Made by a program: the position numbers and the translations under genes. Source: Octopus sinensis (lineage: Eukaryota). From it: DNA of 29,786 nt. The DNA lies in the NCBI RefSeq assembly GCF_006345805.1, contig NW_021832897.1:1-29786 (forward strand), written 5' to 3'. This document shows positions 1,682 to 28,633 of this stretch, piece by piece; position 1 is the stretch's first letter, and every line of letters begins with the position of its first letter. Below the pieces are notes generated by a model. It made no database searches, was not told the origin of the DNA, and was given only the letters and a program-made list of their open reading frames with translations.

Positions 1682-2297
1682 CTTTTACTCTTACTCTTTT
1701 ACTCTTTTACTTGTTTCAGTCATTTGACTGCGGCCATGCTGGAGCACCGCCTTTAGTCGAGCAAATCGACCCCCAGGGACTTATTCTTTGTAAGCCCAGT
1801 ACTTATTCTATCGGTCTCTTTTGCCGAACCGCTAAGTTACGGGGACGTAAACACACCAGCATCGGTTGTCAAGCAATGCTAGGGGAACAAACACACACAC
1901 ACAAACACACACATACACATATATACATATATATGACAGGCTTCTTTCAGTTTCCGTCTACCAAATCCACTCACAAGGTATTGGTCGGCCCGGGGCTATA
2001 GCAGAAGACACTTGCCCAAGATGCCACGCAGTGGGACTGAACCCGGAACCTATTTCTTTATTACCCACAAGGGGTTAAACACAGAGGGGACAACAAGGAC
2101 AGACATAGGTATTAAGTCGATTACATCGACCCCAGTGCTTAACTGGTACTTAATTTATCGACCCCGAAAGGATGAAAGGCAAAGTCGACCTCGGCGGAAT
2201 TTGAACTCACAACGTAACGCAGACGAAATACCGCTAAGCATTTCGCCCGGCGTGTGGTTGGTTAGCAAGCTACTTACCACACAGCCACTCCTGCGCC
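1682..2297 (-). mobile_element. SINE family A (tRNA-derived head, CORE-like segment, internal TA/TG microsatellite, (AAAGAGT)n tail), interrupted by a SINE-B unit
   Basis: Head GGCGCAGGAGTGGCTGTGTGG (A box) ... GGTTCAGTCCC (B box), then CTTGGGCAAGTGTCTT. Near-identical to the copies at 25690-26467 and 26627-28099. Confidence 0.9.
2051..2251 (-). mobile_element. SINE-B (B2 tail) unit inserted between the A and B boxes of SINE A
   Basis: The SINE A consensus GGAACCATGTGGTTGG is split as GGAACC|...|TGTGGTTGG. The insert matches the B units elsewhere in the window. Confidence 0.9.
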
Positions 2298-2596
2298 TCA
2301 TTGTTCTGATTTAGTTTCATCCTTGCATGTGCGCGGATATGACTTTTCGTCGTACATCCATTGCCATAGAACTTTATAACCTCAAGAAATGAAATGAATA
2401 GTGAGGCTTTTGTACGTCACTGGATTTAAATGATAAAAACTTCTACAATACTTTTACCATTCTCTCGGTAGTCATTGTCAGTTCCTGTGCTAAGCATTAC
2501 AAAATGACTGATACTGTTTTGACTGAAATTTTTATGTCAGAGTATCTTTCTCCCAAAAGAGTTACTTTCGCTATGGCTTTGTCAATAATAACGGGA

Positions 2597-3169
2597 GCTG
2601 GCAGAAACGTTAGCACGCCGGGCAAAAATGCTTAGCGGTATTTCGTCTGCCGTTACGTTCTGAGTTCAAATTCCGCCGAGGTCGACTTTGCCTTTCATCC
2701 TTTTGGGGGTCGATAAATTAAGTACCAGTTGCACAATGGGGTAGATCTAATCGACTCGTCCCCTCCCTGTTGTGTTATATCCAATGTAAGATGAGCTGGC
2801 AGAAACGTTAGCACGCCGGGCGAAATGCTTAGCGGTATTTCGTCTGAGTTCAAGTTCCGCCGAGGTCGACTTTGCCTTTCATCCTTTCGAGGTGGATGAA
2901 TTAAGTGCCAGTTGCCCACTGGGGTCGATATAATCGACTTAATCCGTTTGTCTGTCCTTGTTTGCCCTCTCTGTGTTTAGCCCCTTGTAGGTAGTAAAAA
3001 AATAGGTATTTCGTCTGTCTTTACGTTCTCAGTTCAAATGCCGTCGGGATCGACTTTGCCTTTCATCCTTTCAGGATCGATAAATTAAGTACCAGTTGCG
3101 TATTGGAGTCGATCTAATCGACTGGCCTCTTCCCCCAAAATTTAGAACCTTGTGCGTAGAGTAGGAAAG
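2597..3169 (+). mobile_element. SINE-B composite (3 units) bracketed by one 13-bp TSD
   Basis: A box TGGCAGAAACG, B box GAGTTCAAATTCC. AATAATAACGGGA occurs at 2584-2596 and 3170-3182. Confidence 0.9.
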
Positions 3170-3334
3170 AATAATAACGGGAATCTTTTAAACCCATAAA
3201 TGGAATCCTAACAGGTACTACAGTTCCAGGAACAAACAGACCTGAGAGTAGTGGTAATTAAGGGTTGACACCACGCTCCCCACAACTCCAAAGCACTCGT
3301 GCCGGTGCCCCACTACCAGATGCAATTTAATGCA

Positions 3335-4183: not shown

Positions 4184-4345
4184 AATAAGTTAAATAATAA
4201 AAAAAAAACGGGACACACGCATACACATATACATACATAACATGGATACGTAGCATTTATACATATATAACATATACACACAATATTAATACATGCATAC
4301 CAACTCATAGTCATACATACATGCATACACACATACATACATACA

Positions 4346-4376
<31 letters not shown>

Positions 4377-4385
4377 GTACATACA

Positions 4386-4416
<31 letters not shown>

Positions 4417-4842
4417 GTACATACACCCGCATATTCATACATATGCATAGACATATAAAGAATTATACATACATGCATACTTTAACACGTAGATTTACAT
4501 ACAGGTGCATATTTAAGTATAGCCATATATACGTACACACAAATATATACGCAAGCACATGCATCCGTATACACATATACATGCGATTATACACACATAA
4601 ATACCAATACACATTTGTAGTATGTATGCTAGTTACTGCGTGTACATATATATTTATATACATACATGTAGTGGGCAGCTACGTACATTATTTGCAGATA
4701 TATATTAAGTCACACGCACACTATATGGATATACTTAAATATGCACCTGTATGTAAATCTACGTGTTAAAGTATGCATGTATGTATAATTCTTTATATGT
4801 CTATGCATATGTATGAATATACGTGTGTATGTACGTATGTAC

Positions 4843-4873
<31 letters not shown>

Positions 4874-5080
4874 TGCATGTATGTATGTATGTATGTATGT
4901 ATGCATGTATGTATGTATGTATGCATGTATGTACAATGTATGTATGTATGTATGTATGTATGCATGTATGTACAATGTATGTATGTATGTATGTATGCAT
5001 GTATGTATGTATGCATGTATGTACATATGTATGTATGTATGTATGCATGCATGTATGTATGTATGTATGTATGTATGTAC

Positions 5081-5111
<31 letters not shown>

Positions 5112-5317
5112 TGTATGTATGCATGTATGACTATGAGTTGGTATGCATGTATTAATATTGTGTGTATATGTTATATATGTATAAATGCTACGTATGTATG
5201 TTATGTATGTATGTATGTATGTATGTATGTATGTATGTATGTATGTATGTATGTATGTTATGTATGTATATATGTATGCGTGTGTCCCGTTTTTTTTTTT
5301 TTATTATTTAACTTATT
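4184..5317. repeat. Long inverted repeat (fold-back): arms 4184-4529 and 4722-5317, 192-bp spacer
   Basis: Non-microsatellite blocks are mirrored, e.g. AATAAGTTAAATAATAA..ACGGGACACACGC, CCAACTCATAGTCATA and TTTAACACGTAGATTTACATACAGGTGCATATTTAAG. The arms differ mainly in TACA/TATG tract length. Confidence 0.92.
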
Positions 5318-6930: not shown

Positions 6931-7387
6931 TTAAACAGGCAGTGTATTGGTTTTAACAGTAGCACTGTTCCAGATATACGTGTAGTGCCCCCACTTTGGG
7001 CTTTAAGAGCTTTGTAGAGAGTCAGCAAATGAACAGAGCCGCGCTATTTTCGAGCTGCAAATAGGAAGCGTGGTCTTTATGATGCAGATTTAGCAATGTG
7101 ATATATGTGAACTTGTCATGTGAGATCACTGAGATTGTATGATCTAGCATTTCCAATTAATAAGAGGTGGGGTATTATTCGTTATTTATGAATAGAGAGA
7201 TTGAAATACTTGACTGTGTATTCCATGTGCGTAGTTATTGCAATGCATGTTATCATTTCGCTATTGAAGCATGTTTCCGAGGTCTTTGCTAACGTCATGA
7301 AATGTCTAGGCTGTGTGTGGTTGATGCCTGCGTACGGATGTTTCTGTAGGGTGTAAAGTATATATCTTCAGAGGAGTGCATAATACT

Positions 7388-8040
7388 GATTTTAAATGTT
7401 GGCACAAGGCCAGCAATATCGGCGGAGGGGTAAAGTCAATTACATCGAGTCCAGTGATCAACTGGTATTTATTTTATCGACCCCGGAAGGATGAAAGGCA
7501 AAGTCGACCTCAGTGGAATTTGGACTTAGAACGTAAATACGGACGAAATGCCGCCAAGCATTTCGCCCGGGGTGCTAACGATTCTTATTTCTTTATTGCC
7601 CACAAGGGGCTAAACATCGAGGGGACAAACAAGAACAGACAAAGGGATTAAGTCGATTACATCGACCCAGTACGTAACTGGTACTTAATTTATCGACCCC
7701 GAAAGGATGAAAGACAAAGTCGACCTCGGCAGAATTTGAACCCAGAACATAACCTTTTCTACTCTAGCCACAAGGCCCGAAATATTTTGAGGAAGGGGCC
7801 CGTCGATTAGATCGACCCCAGTATGCAACTGGTACTTAATTTATCGACCCCGAAAGGATGAAAGGCAAAGTCGATCTCGGCGGAATTTGAACCCAGAAAT
7901 AGGCAGACGAAATACTTATTTCCATTTCATTACTACCTACAAGGGGCTAAACACAGAGGGGACAAACAAGGACAGACAAATGGATTAAGTCGATTTTATC
8001 GACCCTAGTGTGTAACTGGTACTTATTTAATCGACCCCGA
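7388..8040 (-). mobile_element. SINE-B tandem array (4 units, 5' head missing)
   Basis: Repeated ATCGACCCCGAAAGGATGAAAGGCAAAGTCGACCTC cores, with junctions at ~7585, ~7751 and ~7916. Confidence 0.9.
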
Positions 8041-8060
8041 TTAAATCGGACAGATCGTAG

Positions 8061-8374
8061 ATTTTTTTATGCGCCCTTTTCAAGCCTAGCCAGGCTGATG
8101 GGCCCGGTTTCCCGGTTTCTGAGGCATAAGTGTTCCCCCCAGCTGGACGGGACGCCAGTCACTTGCAGCGTTACTCAAGAAACAGTAAGAGAGAGAGTGA
8201 GAGAAAGCTGGAGCGAAAGAGTAAACAGGGGTCGCCACCACTCCCTGCCGGAGCCTCGTGGAGCTTTAGGTGTTGTCGCTCAATAAACACACACAACGCC
8301 CGGTCTGGAATCGAAACCGCGATCCTCCGACCGTGAGTCCGCTGCCCTAACTACTGGGTCATTGCGCCTCCACA
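8061..8374 (-). mobile_element. SINE family C (tRNA-derived), full length
   Basis: Head GGAGGCGCAATGACCCAGTAGTTAGGGC...GGTTTCGATTCC and an A-rich tail. 12-bp TSD GACAG(A/G)TCGTAG at 8049-8060 and 8375-8386. Related to 21350-21651. Confidence 0.88.
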
Positions 8375-8889
8375 GACAGGTCGTAGTAGTAGTAACGTCA
8401 AAATGTCTCCAGAAGTATACAACACTAGACTTAATATGAGTTAAGTGTCAATAAACTTATCATCTCCTACCTTAAACTTTGTCTTATTAATCAATAACAT
8501 CCACCTGTTTAGCAATATTTACTTACGAGACAGCTTCTATAAAGTCGTTCGTCCTAATAGAAACAGTAGCCGAACTTCCCTCAAATTGCAGTCTACCACC
8601 GCAAAATAGAACACCGTAGATAATATTGTTCAAGGTATACTTTACCTGAAAGTGTGACAAATATACGCGAAATATTTTAAATATTCATTGACAAACTGCC
8701 AGTGTAGAGTAAAAGCTAAGCTACTGTTCAGTCAAGCTTCCTGACACAGTTTCGATTCCTGGTACAAGTAGATTAATATCACGTTCTAAGGAAAAGCTGC
8801 ATAATATCACTAATGTTCTTAGGAAAAACACAGCTGTCACAACGTTACGTTATCAACGCAATTTCATTTCTAGATTTAAACAAATATAT

Positions 8890-9300
8890 TTCTCTTACAT
8901 TCTAGGCACAAGGTCGAAATTTGGGGGAGGGGACGAGTCGATTAGAACTGGTACTTAATTTATCGATCCCGAAAGGATGAAAGGCAAAGTCGACCTCGGC
9001 GGAATTTGAACTCAGAATGTATAGACAGACGAAATACCGCTAAGCATTTCGACCGTGCTAACGTTTCTTATTTCTTTATTGCCCACAAGGGGCTAAACAT
9101 AGAGGAGACAAACAAGGACAGACAAAGGGATTAAGTCGATTACATCGACCCCAGTGCGTAACTGGTACTTAATTTATCAACCCCGAAAGGTTGAAAGGCA
9201 AAGTCGAACTCGGCGGAATTTGAACTCAGAACGTAACGGCAGACGAAATACCGCAAAGTATTTCACCCGGCGTGCTAACGTTTCTGCCAGCTCGCCACCT
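8890..9300 (-). mobile_element. SINE-B dimer
   Basis: Head GGTGGCGAGCTGGCAGAAACG at ~9299, internal junction at 9067/9068. Confidence 0.9.
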
Positions 9301-9499
9301 TTCATCTTACATTGGATATAATACAACTGGTTGTGTTGCATCCTTCAGTGCAGGTGTATGTCATCAGGTAAAAAAGATACCTCGCTCAATATCTTTGGTT
9401 TCGCTTGGTTCGCTTATACGGCATGTTGTTATTGACAGGAGATGGATACAGTTTCCGGGTTATAACCGGTTAATGGATCTACCTATGGTTATTATATCA

Positions 9500-9740
9500 T
9501 ATGTATATGTATATATATATGTGAGTGTGTGTGTGGTGTGTGTGTGTGTGTGTCTGTGTGTGTGTTTGATTTCCCGCCGCCGCAGCTGGATAACTGATGC
9601 TGGTTTGTTCGACAAAAATGGATTTATAGAATAAGTACCAGGCTTTTAAAGAAATAAATCTTGGGTCGATTTGTTCGATTAAAGCCCTACAAGACCGGCT
9701 CCATCATGGTCGTAGTCCAAAGACTTTAACAAATAAAAGA
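9500..9740 (+). mobile_element. Old, degenerate 3' half of SINE A
   Basis: TG tract, then GATGCTGGT..ATAGAATAAGTAC..GGGTCGATTTG.TCGA.TAAA..GCTCCA.CATGG.CG.AGTC, matching 27865-28075. Confidence 0.7.
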
Positions 9741-9741
9741 C

Positions 9742-9772
<31 letters not shown>

Positions 9773-9789
9773 TGTATGTATGTATGTAT

Positions 9790-10155
9790 GCGCGGGGACA
9801 TAGAAATAATTGGACTGAATACCCGATCGTGCGATTAAACCATTGGGAGTGAAGGACTCCTTGCCTTTGTTAGGGCTTCCTTCTAGGAGAAGGTAACTGG
9901 GATAACTCCGACAAAAAAGCTGCGGCTCAGTGGTTACCGATGATGTTGACTTGTTCATCTTTTCGGATTATGGCTGCTGTTGCTTAGTGAGTGGGACTGA
10001 CTCAGTGCACAGCCTTTCCTCACTTTAAAAAAAAACTTCTTGCACAGGCATTGCACGATAACAACATTGATTAAGCTTCGTGCAATGGCCATACTCGATA
10101 ACGAGGGGCAGCCACCATGTATGTATGTATGTATGTTATTTATGTATGTATGTAT
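9790..10155 (+). mobile_element. Short non-autonomous RTE-related retroposon with (ATGT)n tail
   Basis: Ends in CCATACTCGATAACGAGGGGCAGCC (CTCG/CGAG stem-loop at 10094-10105) followed by a tandem tail, which is typical RTE 3'-end architecture. CTAGGAGAAGG at 9883-9893 resembles an RTE 5' UTR motif (recalled, not searched). Confidence 0.5.
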
Positions 10156-10346
10156 GGCGGCAAAGAGCAAAATGTCATGTGACATTCATTTAGCCCTGTC
10201 CTTTTCGTTATCAGTTCAAACCATACCGCAATTGGCTTTGCTTTACCTAAGCCAGAATTCATTATAAACAGAGATGAGGCAATAGATTGGCGAAAGGATT
10301 AGGGTGTTGGACTGAATCTCCTGCAGTATTATTAAAACTCCTTAAT

Positions 10347-10756
10347 AAGGAGACGAGCTGGCAGAATCGTTAGCCCACCGGGCGAAATGCTTAGCAGTAT
10401 TTCGTCTGCCGCTACGTTCTGAGTTCAAATGCCGCCGAGGTCGACTTCACCTTTCATCCTTTCGGAGTCGATAAATTAAGTACCAGTTGCGTACTGGGGT
10501 CGATCTAATCGACTGGCCCCCTCCCCCAAAATTTCCGGCCTTGTGCCTTGAGTAGAAAAGAATCGATAGCACGCCGGGCGAAATGCTTAGCAGCATTTCA
10601 CCCGTCTTTATGTTCTGAGTTCAAATTCCGCTGAGGTTGACTTTGCCTTTCATTCTTTCAGGGTCGATAAATTAAGTACCAGTGAAACATTGGAGTCGAT
10701 GTAATCGACTAGTCCCCTTCCCCAGATTTGCAGGTCTTATGCCTTTAATAGAAAGG
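10347..10756 (+). mobile_element. SINE-B dimer with one degenerate 19-bp TSD
   Basis: ATTATTAAAACTCCTTAAT (10328-10346) versus ATTATTAAAGCTCTTTTAT (10757-10775), 16/19 identical. Internal junction at ~10560. Confidence 0.88.
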
Positions 10757-11292
10757 ATTATTAAAGCTCTTTTATGTTTTACGTTCAAATCCCATCCTAG
10801 TTGTCTTTGAATGTGACAGTATCAAGAAAATAAAGTACTGCACGGCTAATGTGGGCTGAACCAATCCTCTCAAACTTCGTAGACTTTGTGTCTATATTAA
10901 AAATATTATACAATACGGGAAATAAACGAAAGAGTAAGCGTGTGTAATAGTTTTAATGTATTCCGACATCGCATATAATAACGTGAAAATAAATGACCTT
11001 GTGATATTGTATTAATAGAAGCGGATCAAAACGATCTCTTTGCAGTCAAAACCGAAAGTTTCAACCAGAAAGCACGCTTGCTAAATGAGTTTAACTTAAT
11101 TAAATTAGCAATTCGTATGCTTTAAAGAGATTAAATATCGTAAGAAAGTTTTTAGATCTTTTAAACACTACAACAATCCTGATAATTCGATACTGTGACA
11201 TCACTAATGAAATAACAAAGCTCGCCCGGGTTTGAGTAGTTTGAGTTTCTACATTATTTCAGATGACATCACGGGTTTTGCCTTATCGCTGA

Positions 11293-11305
11293 TCTATCTA
11301 TCTAC

Positions 11306-11402
<97 letters not shown>

Positions 11403-11409
11403 GATCTAT

Positions 11410-11469
<60 letters not shown>

Positions 11470-11494
11470 TTATCTATTTATCTATCTATCTATC
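11293..11494. repeat. (TATC)n / GATA microsatellite
   Basis: Direct reading. (CT)n at ~11597-11628 and (CTA)n at ~11750-11811 follow. Confidence 0.95.
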
Positions 11495-11591
11495 AATTTA
11501 TCGAGTTATCTTCCCAAAGCTAATTATCAAGCTCACTATCTTTTTTACTATCTACATTGTCTACTTCTCTCTCACCTTCTTCCTTCTCTCT

Positions 11592-11631
<40 letters not shown>

Positions 11632-11766
11632 CATACACACATACACACATGAATGTAAGTATGCATGTGTATATGTCTATGCACGTATATCAAGTACGTA
11701 AATACATCAAGCTATTAACTTTCCTGCAATCGAATTCTATATCTACCTATACTACTGCTACTACTG

Positions 11767-11811
<45 letters not shown>

Positions 11812-12250
11812 AGTACATACACATGTGCTTTCTCTTATCTCAGTCACATTTAACAGACATAAAAACATTTTCTTCACATTTCGATTCCGTTCTGGTCGTT
11901 TGCCATGTTTTGAAACGATTGTACAAAAACCAACATTTACCGTGTTCCAGCCAGTAATTAACGAGGATCAGTAATTAACGTAGCAGCCCAAATCCCTTGA
12001 ATCCCCTAAATGACACCCTACCAGCTAGAATAAAAGAACACGTGGGAAAATATAGTCCTAGATGCACTATATCTGAAAAAAGACAAAATGGAACAACATT
12101 AACAAGAAACACTACTACTACTACTACTATTCTACTACTACTACTGCTGCTGCTGCTGCTACCACTTCTACCTGGCACCTGTCATAGCTGGGTGGTAGAT
12201 TTAATCCATCATCCCGGTTAACACCACTTAACGTTTATATAATTGAGCGG

Positions 12251-12470
12251 TTCGTTACCAACCCGGCTGAAACCAGCTCTGGCTCTGAGTACAAATGTCT
12301 TATTTTCATGAGTTTTGTACTAAAATCTTCCACCAAACCTTAGTCACAATTTATGTTCCTAACACTAGCTGAATGATAACTAAGTTAATTTACTAAATTC
12401 TTTGTTATATTTAAAGTAAATGAAAGAAACACAGAGCATCCCAAAATAAATACAGTAACGAAAGGATCAA
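12251..12470. mobile_element. Probable piggyBac-like MITE with a damaged left end
   Basis: Residual TIR TTCGTTAC (12251-12258) / GTAACGAA. The right end GTAACGAAAGGATCAA resembles ...AAAGGG|TTAA. Confidence 0.5.
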
Positions 12471-13450
12471 ATGCCGTTAGCGATGTCCACTCTTACAAAC
12501 ATTCGAATCGGGTCGCTAGTTTGCGGATAACTTTACTCTCTTTCTCTCTCACCAGTCTTGAAGGCCCTGTAAAATTCTCATGGGTGTCGCCCTTTTCTCA
12601 TTTTGTCTACGCCCTGAAAATAATAGGGGTTTGAACGAGAGATCTGATGCTTGCGAAGTAAACCTCTTAAACCGTTCACCTACGTCTTTCTCCTCTCTTA
12701 CCGCCAAAATGCTTATACCACGTGTTCAAACAGCCTGGTATTTACAAAAGTCAAGTTTGACTTGCAAAATTATTTCAACAAGCTACGTCAACGCGTCAAA
12801 CATGTTGGCAGACAGGTATTTTCTGAATTCATACCTGATTAATCACCAATTACATACCTGCCTATTGATCTTTCCTGTCCTTACTCGCGACTCTACATAT
12901 TCACAATTCTAATGTTCCGATTGACCTCTTAGAAACTGCGTCAGCGACTTTCTTAAAACTAGTAGTATACGCATTTTCAATGAAATGTCAAAAATATCCC
13001 ATCTTATGATCCAAATATAGATTTTTTCTTGATTCTTTTTCTTTTTTTAAATGTCGAACATTTCAAAAGTGAACTAGAAAACGTAGAGTTCACCTTTTTC
13101 TTCAGATGTAAATGTTAAACTCGATTATTTTACATTATTTGTTCGGTGTAATTTTCTTTCGTGGCGCTGAAGTGAGAAAATGTTGATCAAGTCTTTAGTA
13201 AAAACTGATCAAACGTCAAGTTATACAACTTATATTTCTTTTATGACAATTTACGACAATGACACAGCAACAAATTAGGCCATAAACCGTAAGTTCAATA
13301 AAACTCTTGCTAAACACACAGGTCATAAACAAACGTTAAGTTCAATAATTACAACTTTAAAATTCGAGGTCAATTTCTATTTGCTGTTTTGAATAGGCTG
13401 ATGGCTAGTGGTGATAGCATGTTGCAGATCGCCGTTAATATTCTGTGTAG

Positions 13451-14252
13451 AGAAAGGCGGCGAGCTGGCAGAATCGTTAGCATGCCGGGCGAAATGCTTC
13501 GCAGTATTTCGTCTGCCACTACGTTCTGAGTTCAAATTCCGCTGAGGTCGACTTTGCCTTTCATCCTTTCGGAGTCGATTAAATAAGTACCAGTTACGCA
13601 CTGGCGTCGATACAATCGACTTAATCCGTTTGACTATCCTTGTTTGTCCTCTCTGTGTTTAACCCCTTGTGGGTAGTAAAGAAATATGTATTTCGTCTGC
13701 CGCTACGTTCTGAGTTCAAATTCCGCTGCTGTCGACTTTGCCTTTCATCCTTTCGAGGTCGATAAATTAAGTACCAGATGAATACTGAGATCGATGTAAT
13801 CGACTTAATCCCTTTGGCTGTCCTTGTTTGTACCCTCTGTGTTTAGCCCCTTGTGGGTAGTAAAGAAATAGGTATTTCGTCTGCCGCTACGTTCTGAGTT
13901 CAAATTCCGCCGAGATTGACTTTGCCTTTCATCCTTTCGGGGTCGATAAATTAAGTACCAGTTTTGCAGTGAAGTCGATGTAATCGACTTAATCCGTTTG
14001 TCTGTCCTTGTTTGTCCTCTCTATGTTTAGCCCTTTGTGTTGTGGGCAATAAAGAAATATGAAACGTAAGCATGCCGGGCAAAATGCTTGGCGGCATCTC
14101 GTCAATCCCTATATTCTGAGTTCAAATTCTGCCGTGGTCGAATTTACTTTTTATCCTTTCAGAATAAAATAGTACCATTTGAGCGCTGGAGTCAATGCAA
14201 TCGAATTACTCCCTCCCCTGAAATTGCTGGCATTGTGTCAAAATATGAAACC
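13451..14252 (+). mobile_element. SINE-B tandem array (4 units) with one 14-bp TSD
   Basis: AATATTCTGT(G/A)TAG at 13437-13450 and 14253-14266. Three B2 units precede a much more diverged terminal unit at 14061-14252. Confidence 0.92.
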
Positions 14253-14609
14253 AATATTCTGTATAGCCTGTTATGACAGTTGTCGCCATTAGTGTAGCGA
14301 TGTGGCGGTGTGATGGTGTATAACAGTGTGGGTGTGGCGTATGGTTGGGTTTGTGCGGTGCATGGTAGTGTCGCTGAGATGTATAGGTGTTAGCGTAGTG
14401 TATGCAGCTGTAAGTATGACGCAGAGTAATATTAATTTGATATATGACATAGTAGGGGGCATGGTACCTTTGATGTGGTGTATGATAGTGTTGGCGTGGT
14501 GAGCGTAAACCCTTTAACATCGTGTTAATTTAGAAATAATTTAAAGATATAGTTGGGAACGAAAAGAGAAGCATTAAATATAATATCTTGCAAGATCTAA
14601 ATAGTGATG

Positions 14610-14860
14610 TTAACATCCTTTAATCTTCCACACCAAAGATCTGCGCTTGGAAAGTCTTGCTTCTTTCTTGTTGGCAGACCAGCATCAGTTGTGGCTATAG
14701 AGACCCATGTCTGAGTGACAGCCACGACTGCAGTGACTACGCTTGGAAGAGTTCTCTGCCAGCTTTCTTCTGTTGCTGTTTATCAGCCGATTTTTTATTT
14801 TTCATCGGCGAGCATCAGCCCCGCCTCTCAACTTCCTAAACCCTTGCCTAATTCCAATAA
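14610..14860 (-). mobile_element. Degenerate RTE-clade LINE 3' end
   Basis: The minus strand at 14732-14682 reads CSRGCHSDMGLYSHN*C, matching the RTE C-terminal C..C.S.+GL.SH motif, followed by a short 3' UTR. Confidence 0.7.
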
Positions 14861-14899
14861 TGTTATGTATAAAGGCCATATATTCAAATGACTGGTTTT

Positions 14900-16410
14900 C
14901 AAAGAGCCAAAATAGCTTTATAACTTGTCATGTTTAATAATTATGACCATGCAAATATTAATCGATGTCGACTGAATTTTAGATATTTATTCAGCACATC
15001 TGCAGCTGCACACTTCAAGTTTGCATTTTTTTATACTTGTAAAGTGAATGCTTTTTTTCTGTAGCATTTTATATCAAGACTGCAGACATTCTTTGCAGAA
15101 GTAATCCAAACTAGAATAAACTTGTTGTTTCTTGTCTTTCTCAATCCATTCTTGAATGCAGAGGACGCATATATGGATCATGGACTCATACCCATCATGG
15201 AATCATTAGCTGTTATCCAACTGCTAGCTTGAAATACGCTCCTTTTGATATTTCTTTACAAGTCATCGCTTTTCGGGAATATTCTTTCCATATATGATAG
15301 AACAACTTCATTCGCAGCATATCAATATTGACATCATAATGCAAATTTCAGATCTCAGACAAAACCTCAGACAGACCTCAGACAAACCCCAGACAGACCT
15401 CAGACAAACCTCAGACAGACCTCAGACAAAACCTCAGACAGACCTCAGACAAAACCTTAGACAGACCTCAGACAAACCTCAGACAGACCTCAGACTAAAC
15501 CTCAAACAAACATCAGACAAACCTCAGACAGACCTCAGACAAACCTCAGACAGACCTCAGACAATCCTGAGACAGACCTCAGACAAAACTTCAGACAGGC
15601 CTCAGACAAACCTCAGACAGACCTCAGACAAAACCTCAGACAGACCTCAGACAAACCTCAGACAGACCTCAGACAAACCACATGACAATTCCGTTTAATT
15701 ATGATTAAATATAATATCTAGTGATGGCGGCATTTGTTAATTCTTTGATGAGTGGTAGAATATTGTCCTTCGTCTTGATACAGCATCGTTTGTCCCTTAA
15801 ACTTGAAGGCTGATATGTCTGGATCAGTGAAAACATAATGTCTGGATTAGTGGAAGAGAGCCATTGATTTGCAAGATCAATCCTGAATTTGAGGCAATGT
15901 TATCTAAGATCATTTTGGCTGCTTTTTCAGTTTTGAATGAAATTTGATTTCAGTTTTTTAGTTTGTAGTGATGATGTGGTAGAAAATATTCCGATGTATT
16001 GCTTCAACATCAGTATCTCGTACATATACCATCCCAAGAGATGGATATTTGAAGGTATTAAGATTTACCACAAAATGAATAACAACTTCGTCCAGATTAC
16101 ATTGTTCCATTGGAGTACCATTTCTTGAATTGGGTTTCGTATAAGCAACCTCAATTTCTAACATTATCTTTTTCTTTTTGTTTTTCTTTTTGAAAGTCCC
16201 GAAAGCATCTTTTTGTTACCTGCAGTTGCCAAATAATTATCCTAGTTTCCTGAGACCTTGGTTTTACCAGACACATACTATTGTATACTAGTCCTTCGTT
16301 GCTCATTTGTACCACCTTAGAATGTCGATGTATGGCATTGATTCCAAACAATGTCTTGCCGTTCTTTTCAAATCATACCCAAATCCATACGTAAAACCGT
16401 CCATGAAATA
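14900..16410 (-). mobile_element. Highly decayed L1/Tx1-like ORF2 C-terminal remnant, split by a minisatellite
   Basis: Scattered minus-strand peptides W*NQGLRKLG*LF, FRDFQKE, AYFKLAVG, ITANDSMMGMS and CVLC...ETTSLF occur in the order expected for the L1/Tx1 zf-RVT region. Many stops and frameshifts. Confidence 0.35.
15348..15679. repeat. 11-12-bp minisatellite (CCTCAGACAGA / CCTCAGACAAA[A]), ~30 units
   Basis: Direct reading. The two variants largely alternate. Confidence 0.95.
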
Positions 16411-16420
16411 TTCATCACGT

Positions 16421-16488
<68 letters not shown>

Positions 16489-16612
16489 GGTGGTGGTGGT
16501 GGTGGTGGTGGTGGCGGCAGCAGCAGCAGCAGCGGCAGCAGCGGCAGCAGCGGCAGCAGCGGCAGCAGCGGCAGCAGCGGCAGCAGCGAAAGCAGCAGCG
16601 AAAGCAGCAGCG

Positions 16613-16693
<81 letters not shown>
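16421..16693. repeat. Compound trinucleotide repeat (GTA)n(GTG)n(GCA/GCG)n(GTA)n
   Basis: Direct reading. Confidence 0.95.
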
Positions 16694-16953
16694 AACGAGT
16701 CAGTAAGTGACCGCTTGAATAGCAAATACTTCTCTTCCAAATGGGGTACGAACAAACCGAAAGAATAAATGTAGTATGGGATGTAGTCCGAAAAACTGAC
16801 GCGTCACAGCAGGACCAAAAGTTTGCTCCAGCAGAGCTGACCTGGGCCTAAAGAACAGCAGCTACTACTACTACTACTACTACTACTATTAATGATGAAG
16901 ATTTATTTTCAATCTTAATGTACTTCTGGGTCTACAGCATAATGTTATATTAT

Positions 16954-18807
16954 TTTCTACTATAAGCACAAGGTCCAAAATTTTGGGGGTGGAGGCCACT
17001 CGATAATATCGATCCCAGTATGCAAATGGTATTTAATTAAATCAACCCCGAAAAGATGAAAGGCAAAGTCGACCTCGGCGGCATTTGAACTCAGAAGGTA
17101 AAGACAGACAAAATACCAATTTCTTTACTTCCTACAAGGGGCTAAACATAGAGAGGACAAACAAGGACAGACAAACGGATTAAGTCGATTATATCGACCC
17201 CAGTGCGTAAATGGTACTTAATTTATCGGTTAAACATTTTCGGTATGCAAATTAGTGACTCCCTGCATAGAAAAACTGCTGCATTTGTTGAGTATATATA
17301 GAGTTTATTGAGCGGTTATAAATTTTCGGTATGCAAATTAGGGACTCCCGCATAGAATAAATGCTGCCTTTGTTGAGTATCTATAGAGTTTATAGACGGA
17401 TTAAAAAATGTTGTTATGCAAATTAGGGACTCCTTCATAGAATAACTGCTGCGTTTGTTGAGTATATATAGATTTTATAGAGGGGTTAAACATTTTCGGT
17501 ATGCAAATTAGAGACTCCATCGTAGAATCACTGCTGCATTTGTTGAGTATATATAGAGTTTATAGAGGGGTTAAACATTTTTCGCATGCAAATTAGGGAC
17601 TCATTCATAGAATAACTGCTGCATTTGTTGAGTTTATAGAGGGGTTAAAAATGTTGGTATGCAAATTAGGGACTCCTTCCTAGAAAAACTGCTGTATTTG
17701 TTGAGTATATATCGAGTTAATAGAGCGGTTACACATTTTCTGTATGCAAATTAGTGACTCCCTGCATAGAATAAACGCTGTATTTGTTGAGTATATACAG
17801 AGTTTATAGAGCGTTTAAACATTTTTGGTATTCAAATTATGGACTCCTTCATAGAATAACTGCTGCATTTGTTGAGTATTTAAACAGTTTATAAAGTGTT
17901 AAACATTTTCAGTACGCATCCCGAAAGGATAAAAGCCAAAGTCGACCTCGGCGGAATTTGAACTCTGAACGTGACGGCAGACGAAATACCGCTAAGCATT
18001 TCGCCCGGCGTGCTAACGTTTCTTATTTCTTTGTTGCCCACAAGGGGTTAAATATAGGGGGGACAAACAAGAACAGACAAAGGGATTAAGTCGATTATAT
18101 CGACCCCAGTGCTTAACTGGTACTTAATTTATCGACCCCGAAATGATAAAAGGCAATGTCGACCTCAGCGGAATTTGAACTCAGGACGTAAAAACAGACG
18201 AAATACCTATTTCTTTACTACCCACAAAGGGCTTGACACAGAGAAGACAAACAAGGACAGACAAACGGATTAAGTTGATTATATCGACCCCAGTGCGTAA
18301 CTGGTACTTATTTAATCGACCTTGAAAGGATGAAAGGCAAAGTCGACCTCGGCGGAATTTGAACTCAAAACGTAAAAACAGACGAAATACCTATTTCTTT
18401 ATTACCCACAAGGGACTAAAGACAGAGGGACAAACAAGGACTAACAAACGGATTAAGTTGATTATATCGATCCTTGTGCATAACTGGTACTTATTTAATC
18501 GACCCCGAAAGGATGAAAGGCAAAGTCGACCTCGGCGGAATTTGAACTCAGAACGTAAAAACAGACGAAATACCTATTTCTTTATTACCCACAAGGGACT
18601 AAAGGCAGGGGGGACAAACAAGGACTGACAAACGGATTAAGTCGATTATATCGACCCTTGTGCATAACTAGTACTTATTTAATCGACCCTGAAAGGATGA
18701 AAGGCAAAGTCGACCTCGGCGGAATTTGAACTCAGAACGTAGCGGCAGACGAAATACCGCTAACCATTTCGCCCGGCGTGCTAACGTTTCTGCCAGCTCG
18801 CCGCCTT
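16954..18807 (-). mobile_element. SINE-B tandem array (6 units) with one 18-bp TSD, containing a satellite insertion
   Basis: AGCAT(A/G)ATGTTATATTAT at 16936-16953 and 18808-18825. Junctions at ~17117, 18023, 18207, 18391 and 18574. Confidence 0.92.
17229..17917. repeat. ~85-bp tandem repeat (8 units plus a partial ninth), each full unit with an octamer motif
   Basis: ATGCAAAT at 17245, 17331, 17416, 17501, 17586, 17659 and 17744, and ATTCAAAT at 17830. Periods are 86, 85, 85, 85, 73, 85 and 86. Confidence 0.95.
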
Positions 18808-19179
18808 AGCATGATGTTATATTATCGCGTGATCTCGTTTAATACGTAAGTTTGTATCCACGTGTGATTTCAGACATACTTTAATAGGTAGTTTTATTTC
18901 TCTCTTTGTTACATTTATACGTAGTTTGTGTTCTTGTGTGATCTCGTTATACCGTTGGAACGGAGTTTATGTTCACGTGTAATCTCGTTAATGTATTTTA
19001 TACGGTTTAATTGCAGTCAATTTACAACTGAAGACGTGTACCAGGCTCAGCGATGTGCGGGAGCTCTATCACGCACAGAGCTGGCGCCTGCTCTGTTTAC
19101 ACCACGGAAGTAGAATTTAAAAGATCAATAACACCTCCACTGTTTTTTTTTTCTTGTGCCCTGAAACAGCAGATGTCAT

Positions 19180-20630: not shown

Positions 20631-20883
20631 TGGGTTGGTGCATAATTATTGCGGCTTTTTTTCAACAAATTTTTTTTCAACAAAAATAACATGTAACAAA
20701 AACATCTTTAAATGATTATTCCGGAGCATATTCACCATCTACTTCAATTACTGCTTCCTATTTGCTTGGCAGACAGTCAGACCGTCAATTTAAAGATGCT
20801 TTTGTTAAATATTGTTATTGTTTTTGTTGAATAAACATTTGTTGGGGGAGAAAAAAAGCCGCAATAATTATACACCAAACCAA
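20630..20883 (-). mobile_element. Internally deleted mariner element (MITE-like)
   Basis: TIRs TTGGGTTGGTGCATAATTATTGCGGCTTTTT / AAAAAGCCGCAATAATTATACACCAAACCAA with a TA TSD at 20628-29 and 20884-85. The minus strand at 20772-20716 encodes LPSK*EAVIEVDGEYAPE*, the mariner transposase C-terminus. Confidence 0.9.
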
Positions 20884-20885
20884 TA

Positions 20886-21265
20886 CAAAAAAAAATATTG
20901 GTGGAATTTTAAAATTAAAACAGCCACAAAGTTAAAGCACAACCGGCCAGATATTATTGTTGTGTGGGGCCTTAAGGAAAAGATATGTTCTGTTGTGGAA
21001 ATCAGCTGTCCCCTGGACACGAAAGTAGTTAGAAAAATACTAGAGAATGAGGACATCTTTGAACAATTGATAAGTTTGCAAATCAAGTACCCAAGATACA
21101 TTTTCAGCATCATACTTGGAGCAACAGGATATATACCGACCCGTCTGGAGCAAAGTATGACTGAACTTGGGACCTTGGGTAGAGAATGTAGATCCTTAAT
21201 TCATATGCTACAAATGATCTAGGATTATAAAACTCTGTAAGGTGTTCTTAAAATTTAAAGGATGA
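20886..21265 (+). mobile_element. R4/Dong-type LINE fragment covering the restriction-like endonuclease domain
   Basis: YWWNFKIKTATKLKHNRPDIIVVW...CSVVEISCPLD...KYPRY..IILGATG... then, frameshifted, IIKLCKVFLKFKG*. Contains the RPD...E catalytic motif of PD-(D/E)xK RLE domains. Confidence 0.88.
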
Positions 21266-21349
21266 TAGTTAAAACAAGACCCTTTCCTTCACAACCCTAC
21301 TAGTAAGTAGATGGTCGGTCAAAATTTACTCTCAGTTAAAAGGAGAAAG

Positions 21350-21651
21350 TGGAGGCACATGGCCAAGTGGTTAGAGCAGCGAAGTCGCGGTTGGGGGATC
21401 GCGGGTTTGAATCTCAGACCGGGCGATGTGTGTATGTTCCTGAGCGAAACACCAAAGCTCCACGCGGCTCCCGCAGAAGGTAATGGCGAACTTCTGCTGA
21501 CTCTTTCGCCATATCTTTCTCTCACTCTTTCCTCCTGCATCTTGCAGCTCACCTGCGACGGACCGGCATCCCGTCCAGGTGGGGAACTTATACGCCAAGG
21601 AAACCGGGAAACCGGCACTATGAGCCCGGCATGGTTTGAGAAGGAACAAAC
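21350..21651 (+). mobile_element. SINE family C, full length
   Basis: A box TGGCCAAGTGG, B-box-like GGTTTGAATCT. Perfect 13-bp TSD TAAAAGGAGAAAG at 21337-21349 and 21652-21664. Confidence 0.9.
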
Positions 21652-23002: not shown

Positions 23003-23165
23003 TCTTTCTAATTTTTGACACTGGGCCAGCAACTTTGAGGAGAAGGAAAGTCGGTTACATCGCCGCCAGTACTCAGCTGGTATCATCTGGTATACAGTTT
23101 GTCGCTTACATCCACAACTTGACTCGTACTTTATTTTATCGACTCTGAAAACTCAAAGCCGACCT
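23003..23165 (-). mobile_element. Old degenerate SINE-B fragment
   Basis: GTCGGTTACATCG..CCAGTACTCAGCTGGTA..TTTATCGACTCTGAAA matches the SINE-B body. Confidence 0.6.
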
Positions 23166-24029: not shown

Positions 24030-24805
24030 AATTTTAAGCTTTGACACAAAGTCAGCAATTTGGGGGGGGGGAGCATGGGACAGTAGATTATATCGGCCCA
24101 GGTATTTGGTTGGAACTTTATTTCGTCAACCCTGTATGAATGGTGAAGTTCACCTTGACGAGGTGTCAAAGCATTTTTTTTCCCCGACATCAACGATTCT
24201 ACCCGCTCGCCGCCTTAATAATCATTTCTACTCAAGGCACAAGGCCTGAAATTTGGAGAAGCGGGGGCTAGTCGATTACATCAACCCTAGTATTCCACTG
24301 GTACTTAACTTATCTACCCCGCGAGGATGAAAGGCAAAGTCGACCTCAGCAGTATTTGAACTCAGAACGTAGCGGTAGACGAAATACCTATTTCTTTACT
24401 ACCCACAAGGGGCTAAACACAGAGATGATAAACAAGCACAGACAAACGGATTAAGTCGATTATATCGACCCCAGTGCATAACTGGTACTTATTTAATCGA
24501 CCCCGAAAGGATGAAAGGCAAAGTCGACCTCGGCGGAATTTGAACTCAGAACGTAACGGCAAACGAAATACCTATTTCTTTACTACTCACAAGGGACTAA
24601 ACACAGAGGAGACAAACAAGGACAGACAGATGGATTAAGTCGTTTATATCGACCCCAGTGCATAACTGGTACTTATTTAATCGACCCCGAAAGGATGAAA
24701 GGCAAAGTCGACCTCGGCGGAATTTGAACTCAGAACGTAACGGCAGACGAAATACCGCAAAGCATTTCGCCCGGCGTGCTAACGTTTTTGCCAGCTCGCC
24801 GCCTT
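24030..24805 (-). mobile_element. SINE-B cluster: old copy (24030-24215) abutting a 3-unit array (24222-24805)
   Basis: Heads GGCGGCGAGC at ~24214 and ~24803, junctions at 24388 and 24572. Confidence 0.9.
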
Positions 24806-26467: not shown

Positions 26468-26791
26468 AATTGTTTATAATTTTCATATTTTCGAGTTATT
26501 ATAGGAATTAATGTTTACTTTCTCATCCTCTAATTATCAACTTCCGTCGGGTAACTTTTTCAATAATAACTCCGTCATTATTGACGACTCGGGTATTCCA
26601 GTTACATCATAAAAATCAACATGATTGGCGCAGGAGTGGCTGTGTGGTAAGTAGCTTGCTAACCAACCACATGGTTCCGGGTTCAGTCCCACTGCGTGGC
26701 ACCTTGGGCAAGTGTCTTCTGCTATAGCCCCGGGCCGACCAATACCTTGTGAGTGGATTTGGTAGACGGAAACTGAAAGAAGCCTGTCGTA

Positions 26792-26841
<50 letters not shown>

Positions 26842-26845
<4 letters not shown>

Positions 26846-27843
26846 CACACACACTCGCAGGCGCGCGCACACACGCGCTTGCGCCGGTTCGCGCACGCAT
26901 ACGCGCATGCATGCACCTCGCTCTTGGACCCGACGAGACCTCCCGCTCGTTTCTGGGGCCGTCGCCTGTCGTTGGGTTCTCCCACGCCCGTCTCCGCGGG
27001 ACCACTCTTCCATCTTCCCCTCAGCTGGAGTCCTTTTTCCTTATAACCCCCCCCTTTTTTTGTTACACACGCGCGCACACATACATACACCCACTCACAC
27101 ACACACATTTGCTTAAATATATACATTACTCTTACACACACTTCAAATCTACTCGCCATACATACAACTACGACACTGGACACACACACACTACTACTCA
27201 ACACACACGCTGGCACGTTACATACGCCCCCACCCCTCCCCTCCCTCCCTTCCTCCTTTCTTCATTTTTTTTTTTTTTACTACTGACCACTGTCTGTTAT
27301 GCCTACTACTGTTCGCCCTACCTCACACGCCTACACACAGACGCACACACTAACATATACATATTTTTTTTTTTTTTACTACTGACCACTGTCTGTTATG
27401 CCTACTACTGTTCGCCCTACCTCACACGCCTACACACAGACGCACACACTAACATATACATATATTTTTTGTTTTTTTTATCTCGCCTCACACACATATA
27501 CACACACGCACACGCACACACTCACACATACACACACATCTGTTGCGTTACCAACCCTGTCTCCACTCTTTTGGCTTTAAAAACCTACTTTGCTCTTGTT
27601 ATCGTAAAATTCCGCCTTTCACCATGTGTACTTCGTAAACACCAGTCGTTTTTTTTTTTCTCCCTCTTGTTGCCCACCTTGGGATCTTTCTTTCCTCTCT
27701 CTTCCTTCTTTATGTTTCCGACGAAGAGCTCCGCTCGAAACGTCATACCTTCCTGCTTCCATCTTTCCTGAGCGCCTATTAATAATAATACTGTAATTGT
27801 TCCACGTGTTGTTGTTTTTTCTGTTTTCCCGTTTGGATTAAAA
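26842..27843 (+). mobile_element. Non-autonomous Penelope-like element (CpG-rich 5' part, CA-rich middle with a ~100-bp tandem duplication, hammerhead-bearing 3' end)
   Basis: Bounded by (TA)n on both sides inside SINE A. Duplication at ~27264-27470. The 3' part is homologous to 1297-1510. Confidence 0.65.
27714..27748 (+). ncRNA. Minimal type I hammerhead ribozyme motif (U4C variant)
   Basis: GUUU-CCGACGA-A-GAGC(UCC)GCUC-GAAA-C-GUC-AUAC, with palindromic ACGU stem III and a GUC cleavage triplet. Confidence 0.62.
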
Positions 27844-27844
27844 T

Positions 27845-27877
<33 letters not shown>

Positions 27878-28633
27878 TTGTGTGTCTGTGTTTGTTCCCC
27901 TAGCATTGCTTGACAACCGATGCTGGTGTGTTTACGTCCCCGTCACTTAGCGGTTCGGCAAAAGAGACCGATAGAATAAGTACTGGGCTTCCAAAGAATA
28001 AGTCCTGGGGGTCGATTTGCTCGACTAAAAGGCGGTGCTCCAGCATGGCCGCAGTCAGATGACTGAAACAAGTAAAAGAGTAAAAGAGTAAAAGAGTAAT
28101 GATATTACATATATGATATCCATAAAACCATCAGTCAACAGACAAACGTTTGTTATATCATAGTAAATCCTTACCCCTTGCCCGCTGGTCGCTTGATAAT
28201 GTCCGCTGCTTCCATTTTGTTGCAAAATATAATCTTATCTATTTGGGAGCTATCAATCACTCTTCACCTCTTCATTTCTTTCTTTTTGTCTACATGCCTA
28301 TCTTTCCCCCACCCCCTCTCTTTCTGTTGGTCTGTCTGTCAGTCTGTGTGTATGCGTGTGTATGTGTGTGTGTGTGTGTTTGTGTGGCTTCCATTTCTTT
28401 TCACTTTATTTCTCCACAATACCGTACGTTTCAATTGCCACACTCTCTTCCACCCTCTCTCTCTTCACTCCCCCTCTTTCATTCTCTCTCTCTCTCTCTT
28501 TCTCTTCTCAACTCCGTTTCTTTTTCTCACTCTCTTAATCTGCCTCACGTGGATCCCTTTTTTTTCCTATTCTATCAACCTTTCTTTCGCCCGCTTCTGA
28601 GCAGCCACACGTACACACACTAAGATACGCATG

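Follow-up and report, generated by a model that had tools for sequence, protein, structure and literature searches.

The contig NW_021832897.1 of Octopus sinensis (assembly GCF_006345805.1, positions 1 to 29,786 of the forward strand), analysed here at its full length and called the window, is repeat-rich animal DNA. It holds 24 body cores, on both strands, of a family of SINEs (short interspersed nuclear elements) that we call family B. In this window one lineage of the family, B2, always nests in the heads of its relatives, at positions specific to its sublineages, and this is a real and well-defined feature. In a modular alignment, family B has a single head and body and three kinds of tail, those of B1, of an older B1 type and of B2. 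The head and body of B2 are common with B1, and its own 66-nt tail ends in AAAGAAATA, without a simple-repeat end. The units form eight arrays (I to VIII), seven of which contain B2. A fuzzy scan of both strands collected 15 B2 tails in the window, spanning 2051 to 24595; all 15 abut a SINE head and none ends in unique DNA. Of nine complete B1-type tails that were aligned, six end in unique flank and the other three land in or at B heads.

Tail types and landing sites of B2

Two types of B2 tail join the downstream head at different places. The four tails reading GGGCAA (C tails) all join at head position 16, or site 1. Ten of the 11 others (T tails), two of them decayed (7923 and 17118), join 34 nt deeper into the head, at site 2, where the sequence continues with (G/T/A)GTATTT; the remaining T tail (2050) is followed by GGTTCCGGG of SINE A. 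Two of the C-tail junctions at site 1 lie on old-type B1 units, at 7572..7608 (minus strand; tail end 7586, then AGAATCG) and 14037..14073 (plus strand; tail end 14059, then TGAAACG). The other two lie on a B1 unit at 9055..9091 (minus strand; tail end 9069, then AGAAACG) and on a B2 unit with a T tail (B2T) at 18010..18046 (minus strand; tail end 18024, then AGAAACG). These counts agree with the initial annotation, made from the letters alone, which had placed four GGGCAA tails at a GAA(A/T)CG head site and the other 11 elsewhere, ten before GTATTT and one in SINE A. It had assigned the pattern to 7585..18574; the coupling is indeed found there, but B2 tails extend beyond this span on both sides.

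The distinction between C and T tails reflects real haplotypes: column 35 of the tail reads A in 4/4 C tails and G in 10/11 T tails, and column 59 reads C in 4/4 C tails and T in 10/11 T tails; within 17915-18400, the positions diagnostic for the two alleles are 18036 and 18220. The association between tail type and site has a Fisher p of 7e-4 over the 15 tails and of 0.005 when each array is counted once per tail type, values that overstate the case because the four C units form one clade and provide a contrast with a single origin. The coupling that was initially described as perfect thus holds in its counts, but not as many independent observations. The nesting of all 15 B2 tails in heads is a more robust fact than the coupling of tail to site. 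Within this window B2 shows the fixed insertion position of target-specific SINEs, 15/15 tails lying in heads and 14/15 at two positions.

Junctions are not entirely uniform. The first base is T instead of G or A at 13687 and 14060 (array VI), and GAAAT is repeated at the array III junction (7917-7922). This noise possibly results from untemplated or restarted synthesis.

Independence of the junctions

Each of the seven B2-containing arrays has a non-B2 unit (B1-type or SINE A) at its end, and in none of them does a second complete head occur between B2 units. Direct repeats of ~10-20 nt enclose whole arrays, as would be expected if B2 units nested successively inside an earlier B1 insertion. 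When flanking repeats were scored for seven arrays (II-VIII) with shuffle p-values, the own-array score was the row maximum in 5/7; p was at most 0.001 in four (II, V, VI and VII), 0.03 in IV and not significant in VIII and III. The scars of retroposition are therefore present around arrays, but they belong to the terminal B1 and not to B2.

The initial annotation had named an explanation that would undo its own reading, namely two ancestral dimeric masters with co-inherited downstream units, and this explanation does not hold for the C lineage. Identity among C tails is 88-95%, and among their four different downstream units 72-91%. The two C-tailed units that sit on old-type B1 are 88-92% alike, yet their targets are only 72% alike: for this same pair, identity is 147/164 upstream versus 105/146 downstream (Fisher p = 7e-5), and 86/98 versus 105/146 when only the body is counted (p = 0.004). 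The old-type alleles shared by the two targets start 31 and 36 nt past the junction and private changes start at +9 and +15, which places the change-over to target sequence near the tail end.

The T junctions and the arrays as wholes give a similar picture. Similarity of tails does not follow similarity of downstream units across the ten T junctions (Mantel r 0.01, p 0.45, a comparison of low power). Within arrays, 12 of the 15 B2 pairs have identities of 0.852-0.880, as against 0.885 +/- 0.023 for 90 between-array pairs; being no closer than unrelated pairs, they argue that most arrays are not local duplications. Because the targets are diverged, tail and downstream unit do not co-vary and most within-array pairs are no closer than other pairs, at least several junctions must have arisen independently on targets that already existed. 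A true dimeric SINE with two co-inherited masters does not fit the upstream and downstream identities or the Mantel value. A SINE-derived satellite or local tandem duplication was likewise rejected, 12/15 within-array pairs lying at or below the between-array mean and three above it. Raw divergence from the window consensus was not relied on as a measure of age; by this measure, which is confounded by B1 diagnostic sites, the downstream unit is the more diverged at 8/14 junctions, the less diverged at four and tied at two.

Junction-spanning RNA as a possible guide to the landing site

We favour, with a probability of roughly 0.45, a reading in which B2 spreads by head-nesting retroposition and inherits its site through RNA that spans the junction. 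The read-through, nicking, pairing and order of events that we infer would be as follows. B1 would insert first and make the duplication, and B2 units would then enter the B1 head one after another. RNA polymerase III (Pol III) would start at the single intact head and, meeting no T4 run, would read through the tail into the next head. The reverse transcriptase of a partner long interspersed nuclear element (LINE) would bind a CUUGU-loop hairpin and start at the tail end, while the read-through RNA would pair with target DNA nicked at the matching head position, leading to target-primed reverse transcription. The 5' join would be seamless through homology of the complementary DNA to the target's own head. 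Whole arrays could also be recopied via the terminal B1 tail, which would pass on existing junctions unchanged.

Features of the B2 tail bear on several of these steps. A T4 run is absent from the window consensus and from 10/15 B2 units, and B2 units lack a poly(A) or microsatellite tail; the expected transcript would thus run on into the next head. The CUUGU-loop hairpin lies 13-15 nt from the B2 end and is common to B1, old B1 and B2 tails. Some of its pairs are swapped between families, with 85% of cells paired and 3/4 pairs changed on both sides in 16 chosen tails (9/15 B2 and 7/9 B1-type; six B2 and two B1 tails whose motifs are altered were not included), and these swaps represent one or two events. 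No RNA structure tied the diagnostic base to the landing sequence, tail and junction folds having z-scores of -1.1 to +1.4 relative to shuffles. A LINE carrying the B2 tail was not found within the window, where RTE-like and endonuclease-like LINE fragments were rejected as the partner for want of a CTTGT hairpin of three or more pairs. A ribozyme or retrozyme reading was also set aside, with no Rfam match in the window.

Published work, of which we draw here on individual passages, offers partial precedents. Short 3' pairing raised accurate initiation by SART1Bm from 36% to 76% and improves it for R1Bm, which is said to need downstream target sequence (PMC7265360). Upstream homology leads to precise 5' joins, and tandem arrays of R1 arise by repeated insertion (PMC2718515). 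In R2Bm, 3' homology helps at foreign (Cas9) nicks, and the protein recognises the site (PMC10499050). The R2 precedent cited in the initial annotation is therefore sound in that homology aids integration, but the passage does not show homology choosing the site.

One insertion shows B2 acting alone. Array I (2051..2254, minus strand) is a single T-type B2 unit, 5'-truncated inside its own head and inserted in the head of a SINE A copy (1685..2297, minus strand) whose 5' part matches the SINE A copy at 26627 in 155/156 positions. The insertion lost 1-2 nt of target, made no duplication and has 2-3 nt of microhomology at its 5' join. It runs from inside the B head to the exact tail end without B1, so a B2 tail is able to serve as a 3' end on its own. 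Integration of a circular monomer was rejected for this array, the insert starting upstream of site 2.

A number of observations weigh against the inheritance of the site through RNA. Both trees place the C units together in a single clade that lies among T units (FastTree local support 0.85 and 0.90); mapping junction type on the B2 tree, as the initial annotation had proposed, thus gives the C/site-1 coupling one origin, and it is a single evolutionary switch rather than 15 observations. The 3' join of array I has only GGT in common with site 2, and this 3-nt word occurs 621 times on both strands of the window. Pairing over 3 nt therefore cannot explain the landing in the SINE A head, and a further bias to heads is needed, for which a nuclease preference or Pol III factors, for example, would have to be invoked. 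B1 duplications measure ~10-20 nt, whereas B2 in SINE A made none. The array I unit differs from the window consensus at 11/207 positions and its host from the sister copy at 1/156 (p 0.016; 6/207 and p 0.25 when only private sites are counted), so the insert appears to be the older of the two, in keeping with many decayed source loci or with template switching. Three neighbour pairs are closer than average (0.913, 0.940 and 0.946), and three tails with a GTAGG variant cluster together (support 0.81) and are all followed by B1; because of these pairs and tails, duplication or composite copying contributes, and part of the coupling may simply have been copied within composite elements. In a diverged predicted protein, P0008 (E 0.034), a C-type tail peptide lies 26 residues from a full head and off site 1, a possible exception to the coupling. 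Finally, R2Bm does not require 3' homology to start reverse transcription, precision being what it improves (PMC10499050), and none of the R2Bm, SART1Bm and R1Bm passages shows homology choosing the site. The claim that read-through guides integration has therefore gained from the failure of the dimeric masters and from the expected read-through in units without T4, but lost through the limits of the R2 precedent, the single switch and the short GGT match in SINE A.

Other explanations account for parts of this pattern. A few founding junctions might have been spread by composite copying, whole arrays being transcribed from the first head and retroposed via the terminal B1 tail while recombination and tandem duplication reshuffled the units; the B2 tail would then mostly be a passenger and the coupling inherited by descent. 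All B2 arrays but one end in a B1-type tail with flanking repeats around the whole array, as this predicts, and the single C clade, the three neighbour pairs and the GTAGG tails before B1 (4/120, post hoc) point the same way, as do blood-clam arrays of the form TSD-(SINE)n-TSD (TSD, target-site duplication) with one full head (PMC11481361, in part). We nevertheless judge it unlikely: C targets are far more diverged than C tails, with the switch falling within ~30 nt in 2/2 old-type targets, the SINE A insertion has no B1, and neither the Mantel value nor the 12/15 within-array pairs agree with it. Rather unlikely, in our view, is the action of two partner LINEs, target-specific subfamilies with endonucleases cutting site 1 and site 2, for which RNA homology would only tidy the junction. 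In its favour, a comparable choice between hot spots by the crocodilian element SINEU-3 has been credited to different Tx1-Mar families (in the relevant passage of PMC4494074), a further point against guidance by RNA; the R2Bm site is recognised by protein, and landing in SINE A needs little homology. But C and T differ consistently at only 2/66 tail columns and C is nested in T, so that two partners with distinct nucleases would be hard to accommodate; between the SINE A site and site 2 only 3 nt are alike, and the window has no LINE with the B2 tail.

Template switching would make each array in one chimeric insertion, the reverse transcriptase stalling in a structured B1 or SINE A head and jumping to the 3' end of B2 RNA via a few matching bases. 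The single flanking repeat of each array, the apparent age of the SINE A insert and low-level template jumping by R2Bm in vitro (a passage of PMC10499050) speak for it. The centroid fold of the head also has a long hairpin with site 2 at its loop, but this fold is no stabler than shuffles (z -0.79). RNA of strongly decayed old-type B1 (22/151 and 36/146 differences from the window consensus) would moreover be required, and, for SINE A, a return to a point no more than 1-2 nt from where the enzyme had left, which makes this account improbable. Chance or an assembly artefact could be suspected, with only four C copies in one clade; the array-level p of 0.005, differences of 5-15% between units, which exclude collapsed or duplicated reads, and coverage of both junction bins in two public contig sets render it most improbable.

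Target specificity in non-LTR (long terminal repeat) retrotransposons, its gain and its change are usually credited to the endonuclease. A bolder form of the reading by junction-spanning RNA is that specificity is written in RNA and not in protein, read-through of the neighbour selecting the next site and each insertion recreating the read-through; this we hold to be doubtful. If true, it would mean that one chance landing founded a sublineage with a new heritable target while the partner LINE stayed unchanged, and that a natural retroposon has self-propagating, RNA-guided site specificity. With its two nearly identical tail lineages at sites 34 nt apart, this very abundant SINE lets one ask in a natural setting whether 3' RNA homology alone can select and perpetuate a site, with a bearing on the design of 3' homology for retrotransposon-based gene insertion and on the annotation of octopus repeats. 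Should the rival explanations be right, B2 would join SINEU-3 and the clam arrays as one more tidy example of nested SINEs.

Among the systems compared, again from passages of the papers, crocodilian SINEU-3 is the closest precedent, and B2 may by analogy work like SINEU-3 or R1. SINEU-3 and SINEU-1/2, with Tx1-Mar, are SINEs that like B2 prefer sites inside another repeat (Kojima 2015, PMC4494074). Both SINEU-3 and B2 have two hot spots in one host repeat and subfamily-specific use of them, SINEU-3 using one of the two in Mariner-N4_AMi and never the other, and tandem copies of SINEU-3 are ascribed to sequential insertion. However, the host of SINEU-3 is a Mariner DNA transposon and that of B2 its own family head; SINEU-3 tandems sandwich a visible duplication, whereas the 5' join of B2 is seamless; the partner LINE family of SINEU-3 has been identified by shared targets, while that of B2 is only postulated; and site use by SINEU-3 is a preference (90% or less), while B2 is nested in 15/15 cases. 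R2Bm, R1Bm and SART1Bm resemble B2 in their fixed 3' junction, and R1 also in its tandem arrays at a regenerated site (PMC2718515); unlike B2, which encodes nothing and has two sites tied to 2-nt tail haplotypes, they are autonomous and have their site set by the endonuclease. In S. broughtonii, a blood clam, the TSD-(SINE)n-TSD arrays are, like those described here, mollusc arrays in one duplication, in which a single head is complete, inner units are 5'-truncated and the tail at the end is complete; for the tandem arrays of the clam, unequal recombination between target duplications is discussed (PMC11481361). The clam inner units are truncated copies of one family, whereas the octopus inner units carry a complete tail of another kind than the terminal one and for the most part resemble one another no more than unrelated copies do. 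Multimeric SINEs are known more generally, jerboa Dip/B1 multimers and Alu being multi-unit SINEs as well, but these are full-length units or true dimers, while the octopus junctions lie at a fixed position inside the head (PMC10702118).

Arrays, family identity and surrounding sequence

Array II (2595..3172, plus strand) consists of a partial B1, a 26-nt extension, B2T (tail end 3004), site 2 and B1, and is flanked by the repeat 2584-2594 / 3170-3180 (p 0.0005). Its 26-nt non-SINE stretch (2768-2793, plus strand) recurs at 9303-9328 (minus strand), upstream of a second B head 6.5 kb away and in opposite orientation, where it partly coincides with the flanking repeat of that array. It may stem from a 5' transduction, from local templated copying or from a host repeat common to both sites. 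Array III (7385..8036, minus strand) comprises a truncated B2T, site 2, B1, a B2 unit with a C tail (B2C, tail end 7586), site 1 and old-type B1; its 5' end is lost, and a flanking repeat was looked for without success. Array IV (8890..9300, minus strand) is a full-head B2C (tail end 9069), site 1 and B1, with flanking repeats at about 9305-9313 / 8893-8901 (p 0.03). Array V (10348..10760, plus strand) has no B2: a B1 tail is joined at site 1 of a second B1 via an AGAAT overlap, between the repeats 10325-10346 / 10754-10775 (p 0.0005). Array VI (13456..14256, plus strand) consists of B2T, B2T, B2C (tail end 14059), site 1 and a strongly diverged old-type B1, flanked by 13437-13450 / 14253-14266 (13/14, p 0.001). 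Array VIII (24218..24804, minus strand) holds B2T, B2T, site 2 and B1, then a decayed older head, and its flanking repeat is weak (9/10, p 0.12).

Array VII (16950..18806, minus strand) contains three B2T, B2C (tail end 18024), site 1, a split B2T, site 2 and B1 between the repeats 18808-18825 / 16936-16953 (17/18, p 0.0005). An 85-bp satellite (8.3 copies, 17227-17918) splits one of its B2T units in the body. Three consecutive units carry a T5 run 14-18 nt past site 2, at 18190-18194, 18374-18378 and 18557-18561 (minus strand), and two of these units are only 86% alike. The run would serve as a Pol III stop and so leave a short read-through, and it may be a hidden target duplication. Such duplications inside heads are suggested in array VII and contradicted or uninformative in the other arrays.

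Family B consists of short, dispersed, non-coding repeats with head, body and tail, as in a tRNA-derived SINE. Its coding potential is limited to antisense chance frames, which occur inside predicted proteins of O. bimaculoides; these frames match seven predicted proteins, 5/7 of them named Octopus bimaculoides. By these matches, family B is an octopus repeat. ARAGORN found no transfer RNA (tRNA) genes in the window, and Rfam gave no tRNA match there, either at the gathering threshold or at E <= 10. The head has an A-box-like word with two mismatches, one of four such matches, and a B-box-like word with one mismatch, relative to the box consensus. Family B may correspond to the OK family (Ohshima and Okada 1994). 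OK, OR1 and OR2 are octopus tRNA-derived SINE families. In the passages available, PMC4824008, PMC4758252 and PMC9223172 mention octopus SINEs by name only. No account of the octopus head-nesting pattern was found in the literature searched, a scope without Repbase Reports and most subscription papers.

Pattern scans for family B gave 0 loci in metagenome contigs, prokaryote genomes and viral contigs, collections without octopus DNA. When two raw-read runs were compared with 17915-18400, no more than 15 and 208 reads matched, out of 12.9 million in each. The element also occurs in another public contig run, putatively of RNA. In one of the two public contig sets that cover both junction bins, summed depth was 2.9 million at site 1 and 18.7 million at site 2, figures that are not copy numbers, and full heads are commonly preceded by TTA repeats. 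The same set adds indirect evidence: six loose ends are listed for it, and the tail end is not one of them, whereas the head start is listed with 2425 contigs. In a weakly matching read run on 18187-18288, copies of the tail/site-2 junction occur in the loose ends behind 18261 and 18273 (48 and 12 reads), which suggests a short satellite made of tail and junction. Antisense-protein searches for junctions returned 7, 0 and 1 matches, the first seven of which span no tail junction.

Several other repeats and fragments lie in the window. Two strongly decayed old-type B units, at 24030-24212 and 23010-23160 (both minus strand), were outside the alignments. A young SINE A copy (26627-28099, plus strand) has its middle AT tract broken by ~1 kb, including a segment also present at 1273-1439. 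A third SINE-like family has two copies, at 8075-8373 and 21349-21644, the first sitting where the 5' end of array III was lost. An open frame at 20809-21222 (plus strand) has a PDIVV...VVEISCP stretch and no Pfam match; the stretch presumably resembles the restriction-like endonuclease of R4/Dong-type LINEs. A decayed LINE fragment at 14520-16420 (minus strand), interrupted by an 11-bp tandem repeat at 15349-15688, has a C-terminal Cys/His motif like that of RTE elements. Finally, a long inverted duplication at 4184-5317 surrounds a TATG/CATA microsatellite.

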